Shown: piece by piece, positions 12,051-44,694 of the stretch
Layout: every line of letters starts with the position of its first letter
Numbering within the stretch: the first letter of the stretch is position 1
Source of the DNA: Escherichia phage teqdroes
Direction: 5' to 3' (one strand)
Sequence record: NC_054932.1
Length of the DNA stretch: 64,000 nt
Notes under the pieces: generated by a model
Told to the model about the DNA's origin: nothing
Database searches by the model: none
What the model saw: the letters and a program-made list of their open reading frames with translations, nothing else
Made by a program: the position numbers and the translations under genes

Positions 12051-13366
12051 CATTTGATGATTTGACCGAAGGCCAGAAAAATGCCTTTAACATCGTTATG
12101 AAGGCTATTAAAGAAAAGAAACATCATGTAACTATTAATGGACCTGCTGGTACCGGTAAGACTACTCTTACCAAATTCATCATTGAAGCCCTAATATCTA
12201 CGGGTGAAACTGGTATTATTTTAGCAGCTCCTACGCATGCGGCTAAAAAGATTCTTTCAAAACTATCAGGGAAAGAAGCGAGTACTATTCATAGTATTCT
12301 TAAAATTAACCCAGTAACATATGAAGAAAACGTTCTTTTTGAACAGAAGGAAGTACCAGATTTAGCTAAATGCAGGGTATTAATCTGCGACGAAGTGTCA
12401 ATGTATGATAGAAAGCTATTTAAAATTTTGCTTTCAACTATTCCACCTTGGTGTACTATAATTGGAATAGGTGATAATAAGCAAATTAGACCTGTTGACC
12501 CAGGAGAAAATACTGCTTATATCAGTCCATTCTTTACACACAAAGATTTTTATCAGTGTGAACTTACTGAAGTTAAACGCAGTAATGCTCCTATTATTGA
12601 TGTAGCTACTGATGTTCGTAACGGTAAGTGGATTTATGATAAAGTTGTTGACGGGCATGGAGTACGTGGATTTACTGGTGATACCGCTTTACGCGATTTT
12701 ATGGTAAATTATTTTTCAATCGTCAAATCTTTAGATGATTTGTTTGAAAATCGCGTAATGGCATTTACGAATAAATCTGTTGACAAGTTAAATAGCATTA
12801 TTCGTAAAAAGATTTTTGAAACTGATAAAGATTTTATTGTTGGTGAAATTATTGTAATGCAGGAACCATTAATTAAAACATATAAAATTGATGGAAAGCC
12901 TGTGTCAGAAATTATTTTTAATAACGGACAATTAGTTCGTATTATAGAAGCAGAGTATACATCAACGTTTGTTAAAGCTCGTGGTGTTCCTGGAGAATAC
13001 TTAATTCGTCATTGGGATTTAACAGTAGAAACTTACGGCGATGATGAATATTATCGTGAAAAGATTAAAATAATTTCATCTGATGAAGAATTGTATAAGT
13101 TTAACCTATTTTTAGGTAAAACGGCAGAAACTTATAAAAATTGGAACAAAGGCGGAAAAGCTCCATGGAGTGATTTTTGGGATGCTAAATCACAGTTTAG
13201 TAAAGTGAAAGCACTTCCTGCATCAACATTCCATAAAGCTCAGGGTATGTCTGTAGACCGTGCTTTCATTTATACGCCTTGTATTCATTATGCAGATGCT
13301 GAATTGGCCCAACAACTTCTTTATGTTGGTGTTACCCGTGGTCGTTATGATGTGTTTTATGTGTGA
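12047..13366 (+). CDS. dda: Dda DNA helicase (SF1B)
   Basis: 439 aa; Walker A GPAGTGKTT; matches T4 Dda. Confidence 0.95.
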   Translation: MTFDDLTEGQKNAFNIVMKAIKEKKHHVTINGPAGTGKTTLTKFIIEALISTGETGIILAAPTHAAKKILSKLSGKEASTIHSILKINPVTYEENVLFEQKEVPDLAKCRVLICDEVSMYDRKLFKILLSTIPPWCTIIGIGDNKQIRPVDPGENTAYISPFFTHKDFYQCELTEVKRSNAPIIDVATDVRNGKWIYDKVVDGHGVRGFTGDTALRDFMVNYFSIVKSLDDLFENRVMAFTNKSVDKLNSIIRKKIFETDKDFIVGEIIVMQEPLIKTYKIDGKPVSEIIFNNGQLVRIIEAEYTSTFVKARGVPGEYLIRHWDLTVETYGDDEYYREKIKIISSDEELYKFNLFLGKTAETYKNWNKGGKAPWSDFWDAKSQFSKVKALPASTFHKAQGMSVDRAFIYTPCIHYADAELAQQLLYVGVTRGRYDVFYV

Positions 13367-23514: not shown

Positions 23515-23709
23515 ATGTTAGGTTATCAAGCACGAGTAAAAGAAGAATACGATCAATTAATGCTCAAAATTAATGCACTGAGTAAATTTTTAGAAAGCGC
23601 AAAGTTTCTAACAGTTAGTGCAGTTGAGCAAGAACTGCTACTTTCACAGTTCATCTCAATGAAATCTTATGCTGAATGTCTAGAGAAAAGAATTGCACAA
23701 TTCAAGTAA
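23515..23709 (+). CDS. hypothetical protein (64 aa)
   Basis: ORF with AAGGAAA SD. Confidence 0.45.
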   Translation: MLGYQARVKEEYDQLMLKINALSKFLESAKFLTVSAVEQELLLSQFISMKSYAECLEKRIAQFK

Positions 23710-23748: not shown

Positions 23749-24078
23749 ATGATTTATTGTATGAATATCGGTGATTCCGACATAAAAGAGATTAAACTGC
23801 ACGGAAATCATCACGCTAATATTGTGTACTGTAATAAATTTGAGTTTGGTCACGAAAAACTTGGGTTTCTTTACTGTAATGATGTTATAGTCATGGATAA
23901 AAAGGAGCTCGATGAACTTGACCGCGAGTCTTTAGATGAAAATGACCGAATTTATTATGGCACTCTTAAAGTATATAACGCCTATCTCAGTGGTAAAAAG
24001 GAAAGTCTAAATGCAGAAAACGAATCCGGGTTTACAGAGACTATTTCAGATTCCGACATTTACCCTATCGAACAGTGA
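23749..24078 (+). CDS. hypothetical protein (109 aa)
   Basis: ORF; its 3' end overlaps the denB call by 68 nt. Confidence 0.45.
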   Translation: MIYCMNIGDSDIKEIKLHGNHHANIVYCNKFEFGHEKLGFLYCNDVIVMDKKELDELDRESLDENDRIYYGTLKVYNAYLSGKKESLNAENESGFTETISDSDIYPIEQ

Positions 24079-24568
24079 CTTGACTAGTGAAATGAAGGTC
24101 AAAATTGCTGATACAGCAAGATACTCTTTAAAACAAAACCCGAACCAGGATAAAGCAGAAGTTATTGAAAGATGTCGTATCGCTGTGTACGCAGAATTTT
24201 TTGTAGCAGATTGGTTAAGCGGGTATGTTAATAAAGGCCAAGAGGATGTTAATGACCCGTATACATACGCATGGGATGTATTGGCGCATCCAAGATACTG
24301 CGGGCTTCGTGTAGAAGTTAAGACACACCAAACTGACTCACGTTGGATTTCTGTAACAACAGGATGCAGCGGAGAGTATCCATACGGTTCTGGAATAAAT
24401 CTAGGGCCCATTCTAAATCATCAAGTCGCTGACTGTATAATTATATTCAACACTAAAGAAATTCATCCAGGTGTCATCCAGTACACTCCGAAGTTCATCG
24501 GTGACAGAGAAGACCTTCGTAAGGTTGTAAGAAAAAGCAACTACAACGGATGGTATCTTTCCATTTAA
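24011..24568 (+). CDS. denB: DenB-like endonuclease IV
   Basis: 185-aa ORF from ATG 24011, size and position as T4 denB; an alternative start at ATG 24095 would remove the overlap. Confidence 0.55.
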   Translation: MQKTNPGLQRLFQIPTFTLSNSDLTSEMKVKIADTARYSLKQNPNQDKAEVIERCRIAVYAEFFVADWLSGYVNKGQEDVNDPYTYAWDVLAHPRYCGLRVEVKTHQTDSRWISVTTGCSGEYPYGSGINLGPILNHQVADCIIIFNTKEIHPGVIQYTPKFIGDREDLRKVVRKSNYNGWYLSI

Positions 24569-24586
24569 AAAAAATTTCACAAAATG

Positions 24587-24616
24587 GTTTACATACCACA
24601 AGGACCGTGGTACTAT
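24587..24616 (+). promoter_or_regulatory. early promoter (repeated module)
   Basis: GTTTAC at 24587-24592, TACTAT -10, followed by the conserved leader CAACTATCAGCTACGGAGGAG. Confidence 0.5.
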
Positions 24617-24643
24617 ACAACTATCAGCTACGGAGGAGTAAAA

Positions 24644-24907
24644 ATGAAATTTAAATTTTATTACGCTAAACATAAAATTACCGGTGAATTTATTGCATTT
24701 ACGACTTCAACTACAGGTGAAGGAGATATTTTTACTGCAGTATTTTTATCAAAATGGGAATCAGATCAACCTTACTTATCATCACGTGAAGATCTCCAAC
24801 GATTAGTTAATGGAGAATATAATGATTCATGGTCATATTTAGTCCATGATTGTGTTAAAAAGGCAATAAAACAAAAACACCTGGAAATCATTGAGATTGA
24901 ACTATGA
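24644..24907 (+). CDS. hypothetical protein (87 aa)
   Basis: ATG with GGAGGAG SD; the ORF-track start at 24584 runs through the promoter. Confidence 0.5.
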   Translation: MKFKFYYAKHKITGEFIAFTTSTTGEGDIFTAVFLSKWESDQPYLSSREDLQRLVNGEYNDSWSYLVHDCVKKAIKQKHLEIIEIEL

Positions 24908-24990
24908 GTTCATTATGGTGGTGTTTTGTTTGGTTAATTAGTATTCCATTAATTTGTTTAACATTTACTTTTGTGATGAGGTTATTATGA
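24904..24990 (+). CDS. hydrophobic micro-ORF (28 aa)
   Basis: MSSLWWCFVWLISIPLICLTFTFVMRLL; ATGA overlap with the upstream stop. Confidence 0.35.
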   Translation: MSSLWWCFVWLISIPLICLTFTFVMRLL

Positions 24991-25085
24991 AAATTTTGAA
25001 TTCTGTACTTATTGCTTGTGCGTGGTGGGTTGCACAGGTTTCAGCGGTAGTAGTTGGTATTCACATTTATTACGAATATTTTTAA
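24987..25085 (+). CDS. hydrophobic micro-ORF (32 aa)
   Basis: MKILNSVLIACAWWVAQVSAVVVGIHIYYEYF. Confidence 0.35.
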   Translation: MKILNSVLIACAWWVAQVSAVVVGIHIYYEYF

Positions 25086-25092
25086 AAAAGTT

Positions 25093-25123
25093 GTTTACAA
25101 GACTGTTCTTCCGTGGTACTATT
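25093..25123 (+). promoter_or_regulatory. early promoter
   Basis: GTTTAC at 25093-25098, TACTAT -10, leader …CAACTACGGAGGAAC. Confidence 0.5.
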
Positions 25124-25150
25124 ACCCTATCAACTACGGAGGAACAGAAA

Positions 25151-25264
25151 ATGAAAAAGATTGTTAAAGCTATATGGAATGTAGTTATAATACTAATAGT
25201 TTTGAGTATATTCCCAATCGTTTTAATGATTGATGTATTAAACGTTTACTTTGGATTTATGTGA
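25151..25264 (+). CDS. hydrophobic micro-ORF (37 aa)
   Basis: MKKIVKAIWNVVIILIVLSIFPIVLMIDVLNVYFGFM with GGAGGAAC SD. Confidence 0.4.
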   Translation: MKKIVKAIWNVVIILIVLSIFPIVLMIDVLNVYFGFM

Positions 25265-25271
25265 GGAAAAT

Positions 25272-25469
25272 ATGAAGCGTAAACGCAGTGCTTTTACATT
25301 TATTGAATGGTTTTTCGATAATATTTTTCCGGCTTTATTCATTTTCATGCTGATTTTTGCCTTGGGTTCAGTTGTAGTTGGAATCTATTTGATGACAGTA
25401 GTCGGAATTGATATTCATCAAAATGGTTTAAAATCTGTGGTTGAAACAATTTGGAATGGTGTAAAATAA
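25272..25469 (+). CDS. small membrane protein (65 aa)
   Basis: Hydrophobic core FPALFIFMLIFALGSVVVGIYLMTVVGI. Confidence 0.45.
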   Translation: MKRKRSAFTFIEWFFDNIFPALFIFMLIFALGSVVVGIYLMTVVGIDIHQNGLKSVVETIWNGVK

Positions 25470-25576
25470 TGAATTTACTAAACATTTGGTTTTATATTCT
25501 TATGTTTTACATTGGTGCAAATTTTCCATATTGGATGGGATGGTCAACAACTGCATTCGGATTTTATACTCCTTGA
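25469..25576 (+). CDS. hydrophobic micro-ORF (35 aa)
   Basis: MNLLNIWFYILMFYIGANFPYWMGW…; TAATG overlap. Confidence 0.35.
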   Translation: MNLLNIWFYILMFYIGANFPYWMGWSTTAFGFYTP

Positions 25577-25584
25577 GGTGAATT

Positions 25585-25800
25585 ATGAAAATTTTTAAAG
25601 ATGTAAAAGTTGGTGAAATTTTTTGTTTAGATAATGGTGATCAGTTAATTCGCATTTCACCTCTTAAGAGCACTAGCGAAAAAATGACAGTTAATGCTAC
25701 TTTAGCAAACAATAGTAATGAACGTTTCTGTATTGAAAATGATACTGAAACTTATACCGTAGAAGAGTTTTGGGAATTGAGCGTCGACTGCGACGATTAA
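25585..25800 (+). CDS. hypothetical protein (71 aa)
   Basis: ORF with GAGG SD. Confidence 0.45.
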   Translation: MKIFKDVKVGEIFCLDNGDQLIRISPLKSTSEKMTVNATLANNSNERFCIENDTETYTVEEFWELSVDCDD

Positions 25801-25806
25801 TTTAAT

Positions 25807-25828
25807 GGCCGCGTGTATTCATGCGGCC
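25807..25828 (+). terminator. GC hairpin (candidate terminator)
   Basis: GGCCGCGTGTATTCATGCGGCC. Confidence 0.4.
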
Positions 25829-25860
25829 TTGGAGTAGAAAATAATTTAGAGGAAATTAAT

Positions 25861-26319
25861 ATGAAATACATGACTGTTACTGATCTGAACAATGCAGGCG
25901 CAACTGTTATTGGTACAATCAAGGGCGGTGAATGGTTTTTGGGAACTCCGCACAAAGACATTTTGTCTAAACCTGGATTTTACTTTTTAGTAAGTAAATT
26001 AGATGGTCGTCCATTTAGTAATCCATGTGTGTCTGCACGATTTTATGTAGGTAATCAGCGTTCTAAGCAAGGATTCAGTGCAGTTCTAAGTCATATTCGT
26101 CAACGCCGGTCTCAGCTTGCACGTACTATTGCAAATAACAATGTTCCATACACAGTATTTTATCTGCCTGCTTCTAAGATGAAACCTCTGACGACGGGAT
26201 TTGGAAAAGGTCAGTTAGCTTTAGCGTTTACTCGTAATCATCATTCTGAGTATCAAACACTTGAAGAAATGAACCGTATGTTGGCTGATAATTTTAAATT
26301 CGTTTTGCAGGCATATTAA
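25861..26319 (+). CDS. ndd: Ndd nucleoid disruption protein
   Basis: 152 aa from [25 protein letters not shown]…; matches T4 Ndd. Confidence 0.85.
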
Positions 26320-26399
26320 TGAGTAATTTCCACAACGAACACGTGATGCAGTTCTATCGTAATAATCTTAAAACTAAAGGCGTCTTCGGACGCCAGTGA
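26319..26399 (+). CDS. stp: Stp peptide (26 aa; activator of host PrrC anticodon nuclease in T4)
   Basis: [26 protein letters not shown], as recalled for T4 Stp; TAATG overlap with ndd. Confidence 0.85.
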
Positions 26400-26406
26400 G
26401 GAAAAT

Positions 26407-26562
26407 ATGAATATCGCAAAATTATTAGGAGTTATTTCATTTATTTGTTGGATAGTAGCATGTGTTTTAACTATCTGTATCGATGCCAGCAGTGTGTTTT
26501 CGCAAGCTTTAGCTCAGGGTATGTGTGCATATTTAACATTTGTGTTGTTATCTAATGATTAA
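26407..26562 (+). CDS. ac: Ac (acridine sensitivity) small membrane protein
   Basis: 51-aa hydrophobic ORF directly after stp, as in T4. Confidence 0.7.
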   Translation: MNIAKLLGVISFICWIVACVLTICIDASSVFSQALAQGMCAYLTFVLLSND

Positions 26563-26695
26563 GAAAATCTTGGGCTATTCATTAGCCCTTGCTATTTTAT
26601 TGATAGCGTTATATTACGGAATAATGTTCGGATTAATTCAAGTCGTGCTTTTCATTTCTGATGTTATTATGGCACTACATTCACTAGTATGGTAA
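26555..26695 (+). CDS. small membrane protein (46 aa)
   Basis: MIKKILGYSLALAILLIALYYGIMFGLIQVVLFI…; overlaps the ac stop. Confidence 0.4.
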   Translation: MIKKILGYSLALAILLIALYYGIMFGLIQVVLFISDVIMALHSLVW

Positions 26696-26699
26696 ATTT

Positions 26700-28028
26700 A
26701 TGCAACTGAATAATCGCGATTTAAAAAGTATCATTGATAATGAAGCATTGGCTTATGCTATGTACACGGTTGAAAATCGTGCTATCCCAAATATGATTGA
26801 TGGATTTAAGCCAGTTCAACGATTTGTTATTGCTCGAGCTCTTGATTTGGCACGAGGAAATAAAGATAAGTTTCATAAGCTCGCTTCTATCGCAGGTGGT
26901 GTAGCGGACCTTGGATATCACCATGGCGAAAACTCTGCGCAAGATGCGGGAGCTTTGATGGCTAACACTTGGAATAATAACTTTCCTCTGTTAGATGGTC
27001 AAGGAAACTTTGGTTCTCGTACCGTTCAAAAGGCAGCGGCGAGTCGTTATATTTTTGCTCGTATAAGTAAAAATTTCTATAACGTGTATAAAGATACTGA
27101 ATATGCTCCGGTACATCAAGATAAAGAACACATTCCGCCTGCTTTCTATTTGCCTATTATTCCTACTGTTCTTCTTAATGGCGTTTCCGGTATTGCAACT
27201 GGTTATGCAACTTACATTCTTCCTCATAGTGTTTCTTCTGTCAAGAAAGCTGTACTGCAAGCTATTCAAGGAAAGAAAGTAACTAAACCGAAGGTAGAAT
27301 TCCCAGAATTTCGTGGTGAAGTCGTTGAGATTGACGGTCAATATGAAATTCGTGGAACGTACAAGTTTACTTCACGAACTCAAATGAATATCACTGAGAT
27401 TCCGTATAAGTATGATCGTGAAACTTATGTGAGTAAAATCTTAGACCCACTTGAAGATAAAGGCTTCATTACATGGGATGATGCTTGTGGTGAGCATGGC
27501 TTTGGCTTCAAAGTTAAATTCCGTAAAGAATATTCTTTGAGCGATAACGAAGAAGAACGCCATGCAAAAATTATGAAAGACTTTGGGTTGATTGAGCGTC
27601 GTTCTCAGAATATTACGGTTATTAATGAGAAAGGAAAACTGCAAGTTTACGATAACGTAGTTGATTTAATCAAAGACTTCGTCGAAGTTCGTAAAACTTA
27701 TGTCCAAAAACGAATTGATAACAAAATTAAAGAAACTGAGTCAGCTTTTCGTTTAGCCTTTGCCAAGGCGCATTTCATTAAGAAAGTAATTTCAGGTGAA
27801 ATTGTTGTACAGGGTAAAACTCGTAAAGAACTGACCGAAGAACTTTCTAAAATTGAGATGTATTCTTCTTATGTTGATAAACTAGTTGGTATGAATATTT
27901 TTCATATGACTTCTGATGAAGCAAAGAAACTTGCTGAAGAAGCTAAAGCTAAAAAAGAAGAAAACGAATATTGGAAAACTACTGATGTAGTTACAGAATA
28001 CACCAAAGATTTAGAGGAAATCAAATGA
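26700..28028 (+). CDS. 52: DNA topoisomerase II medium subunit gp52 (GyrA-like)
   Basis: 442 aa; matches T4 gp52. Confidence 0.95.
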   Translation: MQLNNRDLKSIIDNEALAYAMYTVENRAIPNMIDGFKPVQRFVIARALDLARGNKDKFHKLASIAGGVADLGYHHGENSAQDAGALMANTWNNNFPLLDGQGNFGSRTVQKAAASRYIFARISKNFYNVYKDTEYAPVHQDKEHIPPAFYLPIIPTVLLNGVSGIATGYATYILPHSVSSVKKAVLQAIQGKKVTKPKVEFPEFRGEVVEIDGQYEIRGTYKFTSRTQMNITEIPYKYDRETYVSKILDPLEDKGFITWDDACGEHGFGFKVKFRKEYSLSDNEEERHAKIMKDFGLIERRSQNITVINEKGKLQVYDNVVDLIKDFVEVRKTYVQKRIDNKIKETESAFRLAFAKAHFIKKVISGEIVVQGKTRKELTEELSKIEMYSSYVDKLVGMNIFHMTSDEAKKLAEEAKAKKEENEYWKTTDVVTEYTKDLEEIK

Positions 28029-28174
28029 GTCCATTCATAGGTATTACAAGCGCTGCATTAGTATCCGGTAGCATTTTACTGGCGGGTTTAGGTGTTGTTC
28101 CAGCCGTAGCAGGAGGTCTTCTTGCGTTCGGCATTCAACGTGTTATCATGACAGTTATCACAGTCATGCAGTAA
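28025..28174 (+). CDS. small membrane protein (49 aa)
   Basis: MSPFIGITSAALVSGSILLAGLGVVPAVAGGLLAFGIQRVIMTVITVMQ; ATGA overlap with the gene 52 stop. Confidence 0.4.
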   Translation: MSPFIGITSAALVSGSILLAGLGVVPAVAGGLLAFGIQRVIMTVITVMQ

Positions 28175-28179
28175 TTTTA

Positions 28180-28207
28180 GGGAGAGCCGAGGCTCTCCCT
28201 TTTTTTA
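28180..28207 (+). terminator. rho-independent terminator
   Basis: GGGAGAGCC-GAG-GGCTCTCCC followed by T8. Confidence 0.8.
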
Positions 28208-28231
28208 TTTCAAAAATTTTTTCACAAAACG

Positions 28232-28262
28232 GTTTACAACCAAAGCATACTGTGGTACTATA
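28232..28262 (+). promoter_or_regulatory. early promoter (repeated module)
   Basis: GTTTAC at 28232-28237, TACTAT -10, conserved leader CAACTATCAACTACTGATACAG. Confidence 0.55.
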
Positions 28263-28302
28263 CAACTATCAACTACTGATACAGAATTACGGAGATTAGA
28301 AA

Positions 28303-44596: not shown

Positions 44597-44621
44597 TTTC
44601 AAAAATTTTTTTCACAAAACA

Positions 44622-44651
44622 GTTTACATCCTTGTCCTTCCATGGTACTAT
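44622..44651 (+). promoter_or_regulatory. early promoter (repeated module)
   Basis: GTTTAC at 44622-44627, TACTAT -10. Confidence 0.55.
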
Positions 44652-44694
44652 ACAACTATCGGCAATACTGCTGATGATTAAAGAGGAAAATAAT

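Follow-up and report, generated by a model that had tools for sequence, protein, structure and literature searches.

Between denB and ndd, bacteriophage T4 carries a series of very small genes, ndd.2 to ndd.6, whose products appear in the T4 annotation as 'uncharacterized 3-5 kDa proteins in the ndd-denB intergenic region'. These micro-genes are among the least understood of the best-studied phage. Their transcripts (ndd.2, ndd.2a, ndd.3, ndd.4, ndd.5 and ndd.6) were classed as early in time-resolved RNA sequencing of T4 (PMC9697503 Table S2), and the ndd.4/.5 site of T4 has served as a worked example of the exchange of early-promoter cassettes, termed PeSLs (PMC4122927). Deletions of T4 region D, the stretch between rIIB and gene 52, are viable, NB5060 and T4GT7 being examples (PMC12115623), and a CRISPRi-ART survey of T4 scored ndd.1 to ndd.6 all as 'Not Fit', i.e. 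without fitness effect (PMC11879866 supplement). In the literature searched we found no published function for any of the five genes and no mention of 'ndd.2a' either; a toxicity-screen paper (PMC6893735) and an anti-defence screen (10.1101/2024.04.14.589459) hold nothing on these reading frames, and the main text of HIDEN-SEQ does not mention them. Here we examine a stretch of 64,000 nucleotides from Escherichia phage teqdroes (NC_054932.1; the whole stretch is called the window below), in which an initial annotation, made from the letters alone, had pointed to five tightly packed hydrophobic open reading frames (ORFs) between positions 24904 and 25576 as candidate membrane micro-proteins. 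We compare this cluster with the denB-ndd block of T4 and its relatives and weigh what its products might do.

Results

Over positions 24000-28300 (4.3 kb) the window is 99.9% identical to Escherichia phage FriedrichMiescher (Bas39, Tequatrovirus), and the same stretch shows 95-99% identity to several hundred T4-like phages. The micro-ORF block is placed between denB (24011-24568) and ndd.1/ndd, in the order and on the strand seen in T4 and Bas39, and this denB-ndd position of the micro-genes is also kept in other genera. Reading of the sequence, together with an ORF listing of 24400-26200, placed all five frames on the + strand exactly where they had been reported, and all five map onto T4 ndd.2 to ndd.6, the comparison that the initial annotation had proposed. 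In window order they are the homologues of ndd.6 (24904-24990, 28 aa), ndd.5 (24987-25085, 32 aa) and ndd.4 (25151-25264, 37 aa), a single 65-codon gene that corresponds to T4 ndd.3 and ndd.2a read as one frame (25272-25469), and the homologue of ndd.2 (25469-25576, 35 aa). Each ORF is covered over its whole length by a PHROG family (4135, 2401, 3098, 5011 and 8851; E from 3e-17 to 4e-29), with 8851 assigned to ndd.6 (E=3e-17) and 5011 to ndd.5 (E=4e-26), both in agreement with the T4 annotation, 3098 to ndd.4 and 4135 to ndd.2. The 65-aa product matches Pfam DUF7248 (PF23906) with 68.1 bits against a cut-off of 27 (E=6.5e-19, model positions 4-57 of 58). For ndd.4, PF26889 (Phage_T4_Y16N) is precomputed on every homologue found with an ndd.4 profile, the 37-aa Tequatrovirus proteins included, although the model itself was not raised in the Pfam scan of the window; the profile was built from an alignment headed by a 40-aa homologue. 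NCBIfam gave no name to any of the micro-ORF products, and an Rfam scan of the region at E<=1 returned no RNA family match. A search for relatives through Ndd in IMG/VR yielded only five near-identical loci, and GenBank phage records were used instead.

These matches identify the cluster as the block of small genes between denB and ndd in a T4-like phage of the genus Tequatrovirus, and the micro-ORF finding is a rediscovery of genes already known. The novelty implied at the outset is not borne out: the ORFs are the long-annotated ndd.2 to ndd.6 of T4, with PHROG families for all and Pfam families for two. That they were 'missed by the ORF track' is true of that one list and is an effect of its length threshold, because the GenBank record of the closest relative, Bas39, carries all five as coding sequences (as hypothetical proteins).

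In AT-rich DNA, hydrophobic small ORFs are frequent by chance, and conservation was therefore tested by alignment. Over the six frames of the window, 34 of the 281 ATG-initiated ORFs of 25-70 codons have a 19-residue window that reaches a Kyte-Doolittle (KD) hydropathy of 2.0 or more. Five off-frame ORFs of this kind on the + strand (at 13290, 17397, 21506, 23287 and 47663; 28-45 aa, KD >= 2.4) have no PHROG match; these are probably chance frames and served as negative controls. The denB-ndd region of the window was aligned with that of 21 other Tequatrovirus sequences (22 in total), T4, T2 and RB27 among them. In the annotated frame, the ratio of nonsynonymous to synonymous differences per site (pN/pS) was 0.09 for ndd.6, 0.08 for ndd.5, 0.08 for the 65-aa gene, 0.14 for ndd.2 and 0.08 for ndd.1, and it rose to between 0.4 and more than 5 in the two shifted frames. 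Variable sites over the five micro-ORFs fall at codon positions 1, 2 and 3 in the numbers 19, 12 and 58 (chi-square p=1e-9); for ndd.5, which is intact in all 21 non-engineered aligned sequences, the corresponding numbers are 1, 1 and 11. The coding status of ndd.4 rests on conservation across genera, because too few changes have accumulated within Tequatrovirus. This gene is the most widely conserved of the five, with homologues in Gaprivervirus, Dhakavirus, Marfavirus and in Enterobacter, Edwardsiella and Klebsiella phages; its cross-genus pN/pS is 0.34-0.38 at saturated pS, and the core K.I.N..VL.I.PIV..ID is invariant across genera. Homologues of the 65-aa gene and of ndd.2 occur in VR7 (68 aa) and in Klebsiella phage Marfa, respectively; in the latter, IG.N.PYW.GWS.T is conserved. 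When phage records were searched with tblastn, full-length frames were found to be kept in 492 cases for ndd.6, 594 for ndd.4, 492 of 493 for the 65-aa gene and 496 for ndd.2. The same search gave no match for ndd.5, probably through low-complexity masking, and the presence of this gene rests on the 22-sequence alignment. Conservation in frame among related phages, the lack of which the initial annotation had named as refuting, is thus what we observe, and as judged from the pattern of substitutions the micro-ORFs are protein-coding genes under purifying selection.

The arrangement of the frames bears on how they would be translated. The overlapping stop and start codons that had been described are present: an ATGA at 24904-24907 joins an upstream 87-aa ORF to ndd.6, a second ATGA at 24987-24990 joins ndd.6 to ndd.5, and a TAATG at 25467-25471 joins the 65-aa gene to ndd.2, while the 37-aa and 65-aa ORFs are separated by 7 nt. 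Shine-Dalgarno (SD) sequences had been ascribed to the cluster as a whole. They are strong before 25151 (GGAGG) and before 24987 and 25272 (GAGG), but weak before 24904 and 25469 (GAG/GGTG), and the two ORFs with a weak SD are ORFs whose starts overlap a stop codon. A mechanical ORF list extends some of the micro-ORFs to an upstream TTG; it is the ATG starts that have an SD or an overlapping stop. Furthermore, the ATGA at the start of ndd.6 is the end of an ORF in all 22 aligned sequences, even where the upstream gene has been deleted or replaced. Where the 87-aa gene is lacking, as in T4, or replaced, as in the T2/RB27 type, an eight-codon remnant, MKI(A/V)EIEL*, ends on the ndd.6 ATGA; the SD in front of this remnant is clear in T4 (GGAG) and weaker in the T2 type (GAG). 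The persistence of an ORF that ends at this point suggests, if indirectly, that translation of ndd.6 has been selected. On the reading of these junctions, translation of the micro-genes is chained by overlapping stop and start codons.

Two predicted early promoters of sigma-70 type precede the micro-genes, both with the sequence TTTACA-N17-TACTAT and a TG extension, and both on the + strand. The one at 24588-24616 would drive the 87-aa ORF, ndd.6 and ndd.5. The one at 25094-25122, which is conserved in those aligned Tequatrovirus sequences that retain the segment, would drive ndd.4, the 65-aa gene, ndd.2 and ndd.1; the last of these (25585-25800, +) encodes a soluble, acidic protein of 71 aa and ends the small-ORF transcription unit. 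Both sites match the PST/T4 early-promoter consensus TTTACW-N17-TAYWAT (PMC4122927), which occurs 14 times on the + strand of the window and not once on the - strand. From promoter sequence and gene order, the micro-genes are arranged as two short operons behind strong early promoters. Similarity extends over about 60 nt, an upstream A/T tract included, among the promoters at 24569-24643, 25087-25150, 28213-28300 and 44603-44690 (+). A downstream leader, ACTATCA(A/G)CTAC, follows in three of these four, the copy at 44623 having ACTATCGGCAAT instead, and in the two copies that flank the micro-ORF cluster the leader runs into GGAGG. In fitting the consensus and adjoining variable small ORFs (the 24644-24907 cassette), both promoters resemble PeSL cassettes (PMC2839356, PMC4122927). 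However, a terminator scan detected no stem-loop next to either promoter, and they are not demonstrably complete PeSLs because no clear stem-loop was found upstream of them. The sole strong hairpin lies downstream, between ndd.1 and ndd, at 25807-25828 (+): a GC-rich 9-bp stem, GGCCGCGUG-UAUU-CAUGCGGCC, with no T-run after it. The segment 25796-25862 folds with a minimum free energy of -19.4 kcal/mol (z=-3.9), the hairpin stem is kept in all aligned sequences, and the structure might stabilise the mRNA, take part in its processing or act as a partial terminator.

The best 19-residue KD windows of the predicted products score 2.31 for ndd.6, 2.17 for ndd.5, 3.06 for ndd.4, 2.71 for the 65-aa protein and 1.29 for ndd.2. 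The first four values are like those of transmembrane segments, and in these products, unlike in ndd.2, the hydrophobic segment is 19 residues or longer and has a charge bias at its flanks. The single hydrophobic helix that had been attributed to every product stands for at least four of them (KD 2.2-3.1) and is not clear for the fifth (KD 1.29). In ndd.6 the hydrophobic helix covers residues ~4-25 and an Arg lies at the C-terminus, which ends RLL. The ndd.4 product has an N-terminal KK..K (MKKIVK), a transmembrane (TM) helix and an invariant SIFPIV.MID core. The 65-aa protein begins with a basic MKRKR, continues as one long TM helix and ends in a conserved C-terminal motif, NGLKSVVETIWNG. Its AlphaFold model (mean predicted local distance difference test score, pLDDT, 80.6, and >90 over the TM part) has helices at 3-17 and 19-64 and is essentially one long helix with a kink at a conserved proline. 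An exhaustive profile search with DUF7248 gave ~27 clusters, almost all of 47-76 aa, and the ten small clusters inspected share a plan of basic N-terminus, TM segment and a tail of the form (D/E/Q)(N/D/E)GLKS(V/I)(V/I)..(I/V)W(N/E/D)G. So specific a conserved tail favours a defined binding partner over generic membrane damage. Four large proteins hit by the same profile were judged spurious: the one inspected, P0032 (976 aa), is a repeat protein with many copies of a short W(N/D)(G/A)IK-type motif, and in three others (820-947 aa) the same short stretch of the profile was matched repeatedly.

By the positive-inside rule, these sequences suggest a cytoplasmic N-terminus for ndd.4, ndd.5 (which begins MK) and the 65-aa protein, and a cytoplasmic C-terminus for ndd.6. 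A cleavable signal peptide was considered for the 65-aa protein and rejected; across the family, no cleavage site is conserved in the residues that precede the tail, and because of this a signal anchor is more likely. Residues 8-11 of ndd.5, LIAC, resemble a lipobox, with the Cys at residue 11 and the hydrophobic stretch following it; the resemblance is probably coincidental. The labels 'outer membrane' and 'periplasmic' carried by T4 entries are apparently artefacts of outdated localisation prediction, in one instance made on a truncated sequence. We also considered whether the five products and three hydrophobic neighbours (Ac, gp52.1 and MotA.1, below) might be paralogues that arose by tandem duplication. 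This was rejected: among 28 pairwise local alignments compared with shuffles the best reached p=0.04, uncorrected, no pair remained significant once the 28 comparisons were corrected for, and by sequence comparison the micro-genes are distinct families, not duplicates.

The alignment also corrects the T4 reference annotation at two points. In T4 RefSeq NC_000866 (166548-166628) one G is missing at codons 2-3 of the 65-codon gene (ATGAAGCGT -> ATGAACGT). This G is present, and the gene intact, in re-sequenced T4 (OZ209057), and it is present in all other phages. With the G missing, T4 'ndd.3' (26 aa) is a reading in the wrong frame; it looks like a frameshift artefact, the real gene being the 65-aa DUF7248 gene. 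In the CRISPRi-ART table ndd.3 is a PHROG singleton (PMC11879866). T4 'ndd.2a' consists of the C-terminal 40 residues of the 65-aa protein, read from an internal Met. Similarly, the ATG of the 42-aa T4 ndd.4 arises from a C-to-T change inside the SD (CTACGGAGG -> CTATGGAGG; window 25136-25153) that the other phages do not have. To judge by the aligned starts, the T4 ndd.4 start is probably placed five codons too far upstream, and the conserved start gives 37 aa.

Individual phages carry altered copies of the micro-genes. T2 (AP018813, 1501-1698) has a nonsense codon at S33 of the 65-aa gene, EC121 a +2 frameshift in ndd.2, TB004 a 72-nt in-frame deletion in ndd.2 and 101112UKE3-1 a 55-nt duplication at the ndd.6/ndd.5 junction; these lesions may include sequencing errors. 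In the Tequatrovirus alignment ndd.2 is the most often disrupted of the five. Two in-frame chimeras were found, both with junctions at short VVG-coding homologies: gp120 of Shigella phage Sf25 (P0007) joins ndd.4(1-31) to the C-terminal 31 residues of the 65-aa protein, and T4_583L (1564-1695), an engineered or laboratory deletion, joins ndd.5(1-22) to the last 21 residues of that protein. Upstream, the soluble 87-aa ORF (24644-24907, +; PHROG 2390), whose stop overlaps the ndd.6 start, is a polymorphic cassette after denB that occurs in three states, namely divergent 87-aa alleles, an unrelated 68-aa gene (T2/RB27 type) and deletion (T4). Homologues of the 87-aa ORF stand at the same place in Mosigvirus, Dhakavirus and Gaprivervirus. 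On our reading, micro-genes are gained, lost and fused by recombination at the repeated early-promoter cassettes and at short homologies.

We read the surroundings of the block as an island of host-takeover and counter-defence genes: its neighbours are rIIB, DenB.1 (Sequestin), DenB, Ndd, Stp (the anticodon-nuclease activator), Ac and MotA. Two further hydrophobic micro-ORFs that had been noted nearby on the + strand are real, and are T4 gp52.1 (26555-26695, 46 aa; Pfam DUF7396, with a PHROG match) and MotA.1 (28025-28174, 49 aa; PHROG match). Their grouping with the cluster and with ac as small hydrophobic early proteins is supported: Ac, gp52.1 and MotA.1 share size class, hydrophobicity, strand and early region with the micro-genes, but are unrelated to them in sequence, and Ac differs further in having a genetic phenotype, acridine sensitivity (T4 annotation). 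The DenB.1 homologue (23515-23709, +; 64 aa) matches PF21825 (E=4e-19). The name Sequestin was given to this family in 2025. With its T4 member, Y16Q, an engineered phage was able to overcome type I Thoeris; the signal 3'cADPR was shown to be bound by a different Sequestin and is predicted to be bound by Y16Q (PMC12265669).

Discussion

We hold it to be very probable that the five ORFs are real early membrane micro-genes. What their products do is less secure, and the account towards which we lean, with modest confidence, is that they are early single-pass inner-membrane accessory microproteins that bind host envelope targets. Each product would be made within the opening minutes of infection and would span the host inner membrane once, and the 65-aa protein would present a conserved amphipathic tail of ~20 residues in the periplasm. 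Early in infection each peptide would then probably pair, helix against helix, with one particular protein of the host envelope; candidate targets are membrane-embedded effectors of defence or exclusion, transporters and proteases. The benefit may be conditional on the host or on competition, and we propose that laboratory knock-downs and deletions are silent because the benefit is limited to certain hosts or to competition. An accessory role is suggested by the early promoters, the membrane character, the motif-specific purifying selection combined with dispensability in the laboratory, and the gene neighbourhood; the natural knock-outs in T2, EC121 and TB004 and the T4_583L deletion also speak for it. 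The more particular proposal of target binding we advance tentatively, and would not be surprised to see it fail.

Several points weigh against this account. The target-binding mechanism is argued from analogy and gene neighbourhood. T4 proteomics lists the ndd.2 to ndd.6 proteins as not detected; Ndd and Ndd.1 were detected in T4, the ndd.1 transcript and protein being classed as early (PMC9697503 Table S2). Non-detection by mass spectrometry is unsurprising, as hydrophobic peptides of 3-7 kDa are poor targets. The ndd.2 product has no clear TM helix; it lacks charged residues, and 13 of its 35 residues are aromatic. Several natural isolates carry disrupted copies of a micro-gene. Within Tequatrovirus the pN/pS of ndd.4 is 0.69, from 8 variable sites only. 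Finally, homologues of ndd.6 and ndd.5 were not found in the four other genera inspected, and all tblastn matches of ndd.6 are at least 85% identical; with no homologues in those genera, these two could be young genes of marginal function.

Early accessory membrane proteins might instead seal the envelope. In an explanation by superinfection exclusion, which the initial annotation had named beside host-membrane functions, the products would bring about an Imm- or Sp-like early change in the inner membrane or periplasm that blocks the DNA of later phages. Early promoters and early transcripts fit this explanation, as do the predicted inner-membrane location, the conserved tail of the 65-aa protein facing the periplasm, and the fact that the genes, like exclusion genes, are dispensable in single-phage laboratory infections. 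T4 Imm and Sp are likewise early, non-essential and envelope-located, which makes them candidates for a likeness in the way of working. However, none of the five products has a Pfam or PHROG match to Imm, Sp or any named family, Imm is larger than the micro-proteins, Sp is a larger periplasmic protein, and exclusion by T4 is already explained by imm and sp. We regard this explanation as improbable. A little less probable again is that the products are membrane-perturbing host shut-off peptides, which would depolarise or permeabilise the inner membrane as type I toxins (Hok, TisB, Ibs) or holin-like proteins do, and would thereby contribute to the arrest of host metabolism. The size of 28-65 aa and the hydrophobicity recall type I toxins (Ldr among them), and the genes adjoin those of Ndd, which is toxic to the host, and of Ac, a predicted membrane protein in the T4 record. 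Generic disruption, however, would have no need of family-specific motifs such as SIFPIV.MID, NGLKSVV..IWNG and PYW.GWS, and an energised membrane is needed by the phage through early and middle infection. Type I toxins differ from the micro-genes in their antisense RNAs as well: the window has no early-promoter consensus site on the - strand and the region no Rfam match to a toxin-antisense RNA at E<=1. A search for an antisense regulator of type I toxin-antitoxin kind found none, the weak generic promoter-like matches on the - strand being no commoner than in shuffled sequence. Conservation in the micro-genes is, moreover, specific to motifs.

The opposite possibility is that the proteins have little or no function, the frames being translated spacers that, by coupling, relay ribosomes from the early promoters to ndd.1, or DNA kept for promoter or recombination-cassette reasons, with hydrophobicity a by-product of T-rich sequence. 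The frequency of chance hydrophobic small ORFs noted above (34/281), the silent laboratory knock-downs, the broken copies in several isolates and the coupling of ndd.6 that is kept even with the upstream gene lost are all in keeping with such a view. Yet a pN/pS of ~0.1 and the excess of third-position changes argue that the amino-acid sequence itself is selected, three families keep their motifs across genera with the DNA saturated (pS 0.6-1.0), and the hydrophobic control ORFs elsewhere in the window have no family match. Among the rivals this one fits the selection data worst, and we consider it very unlikely.

Early accessory microproteins that bind envelope targets thus remain our preferred account, and a bolder extension of it may be sketched, which we think rather unlikely as it stands. 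The eight small proteins encoded from denB to motA (ndd.6, ndd.5, ndd.4, the 65-aa DUF7248 protein, ndd.2, Ac, gp52.1 and MotA.1) might form a toolkit of target-specific 'transmembrane inhibitors', each binding, helix to helix, and so neutralising a different effector of defence or exclusion, or a different transporter, in the host inner membrane. Such a set would parallel, in the membrane, the soluble anti-defence sponge Sequestin/DenB.1, whose gene lies 1.2 kb upstream, and new specificities could arise by in-frame recombination of micro-ORFs, as in the Sf25 and T4_583L chimeras. The block is in any case a reasonable place to seek counter-defence or exclusion at the level of the membrane, because the neighbouring DenB.1/Y16Q proved to be anti-Thoeris only in 2025. 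As a discovery the cluster has little value, its genes having been in the T4 annotation for decades and in public family databases; the comparison does correct the T4 reference annotation of ndd.3 and ndd.4.

Among described systems, the bacterial small membrane regulators AcrZ, MgrB and MgtS (PMC11539335) offer the analogy we favour. They are single-pass peptides of <70 aa, as the micro-proteins are predicted to be, and act by binding a larger membrane protein; unlike the micro-proteins they are encoded by the host and their partners are known, and the two groups share no homology. The closest relation is to ndd.2-ndd.6 of T4 itself, of which the micro-genes are orthologues in the same order, on the same strand and with the same promoters and coupling; across Tequatrovirus the proteins are 92-100% identical. 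The differences from T4 are few: the 65-codon gene, split into ndd.3 and ndd.2a in RefSeq, is intact in the window; ndd.4 has 37 aa from the conserved ATG compared with 42 aa in the T4 annotation; ndd.2 has 35 aa compared with 36; and the 87-aa gene that stands between denB and ndd.6 in the window is absent from T4.

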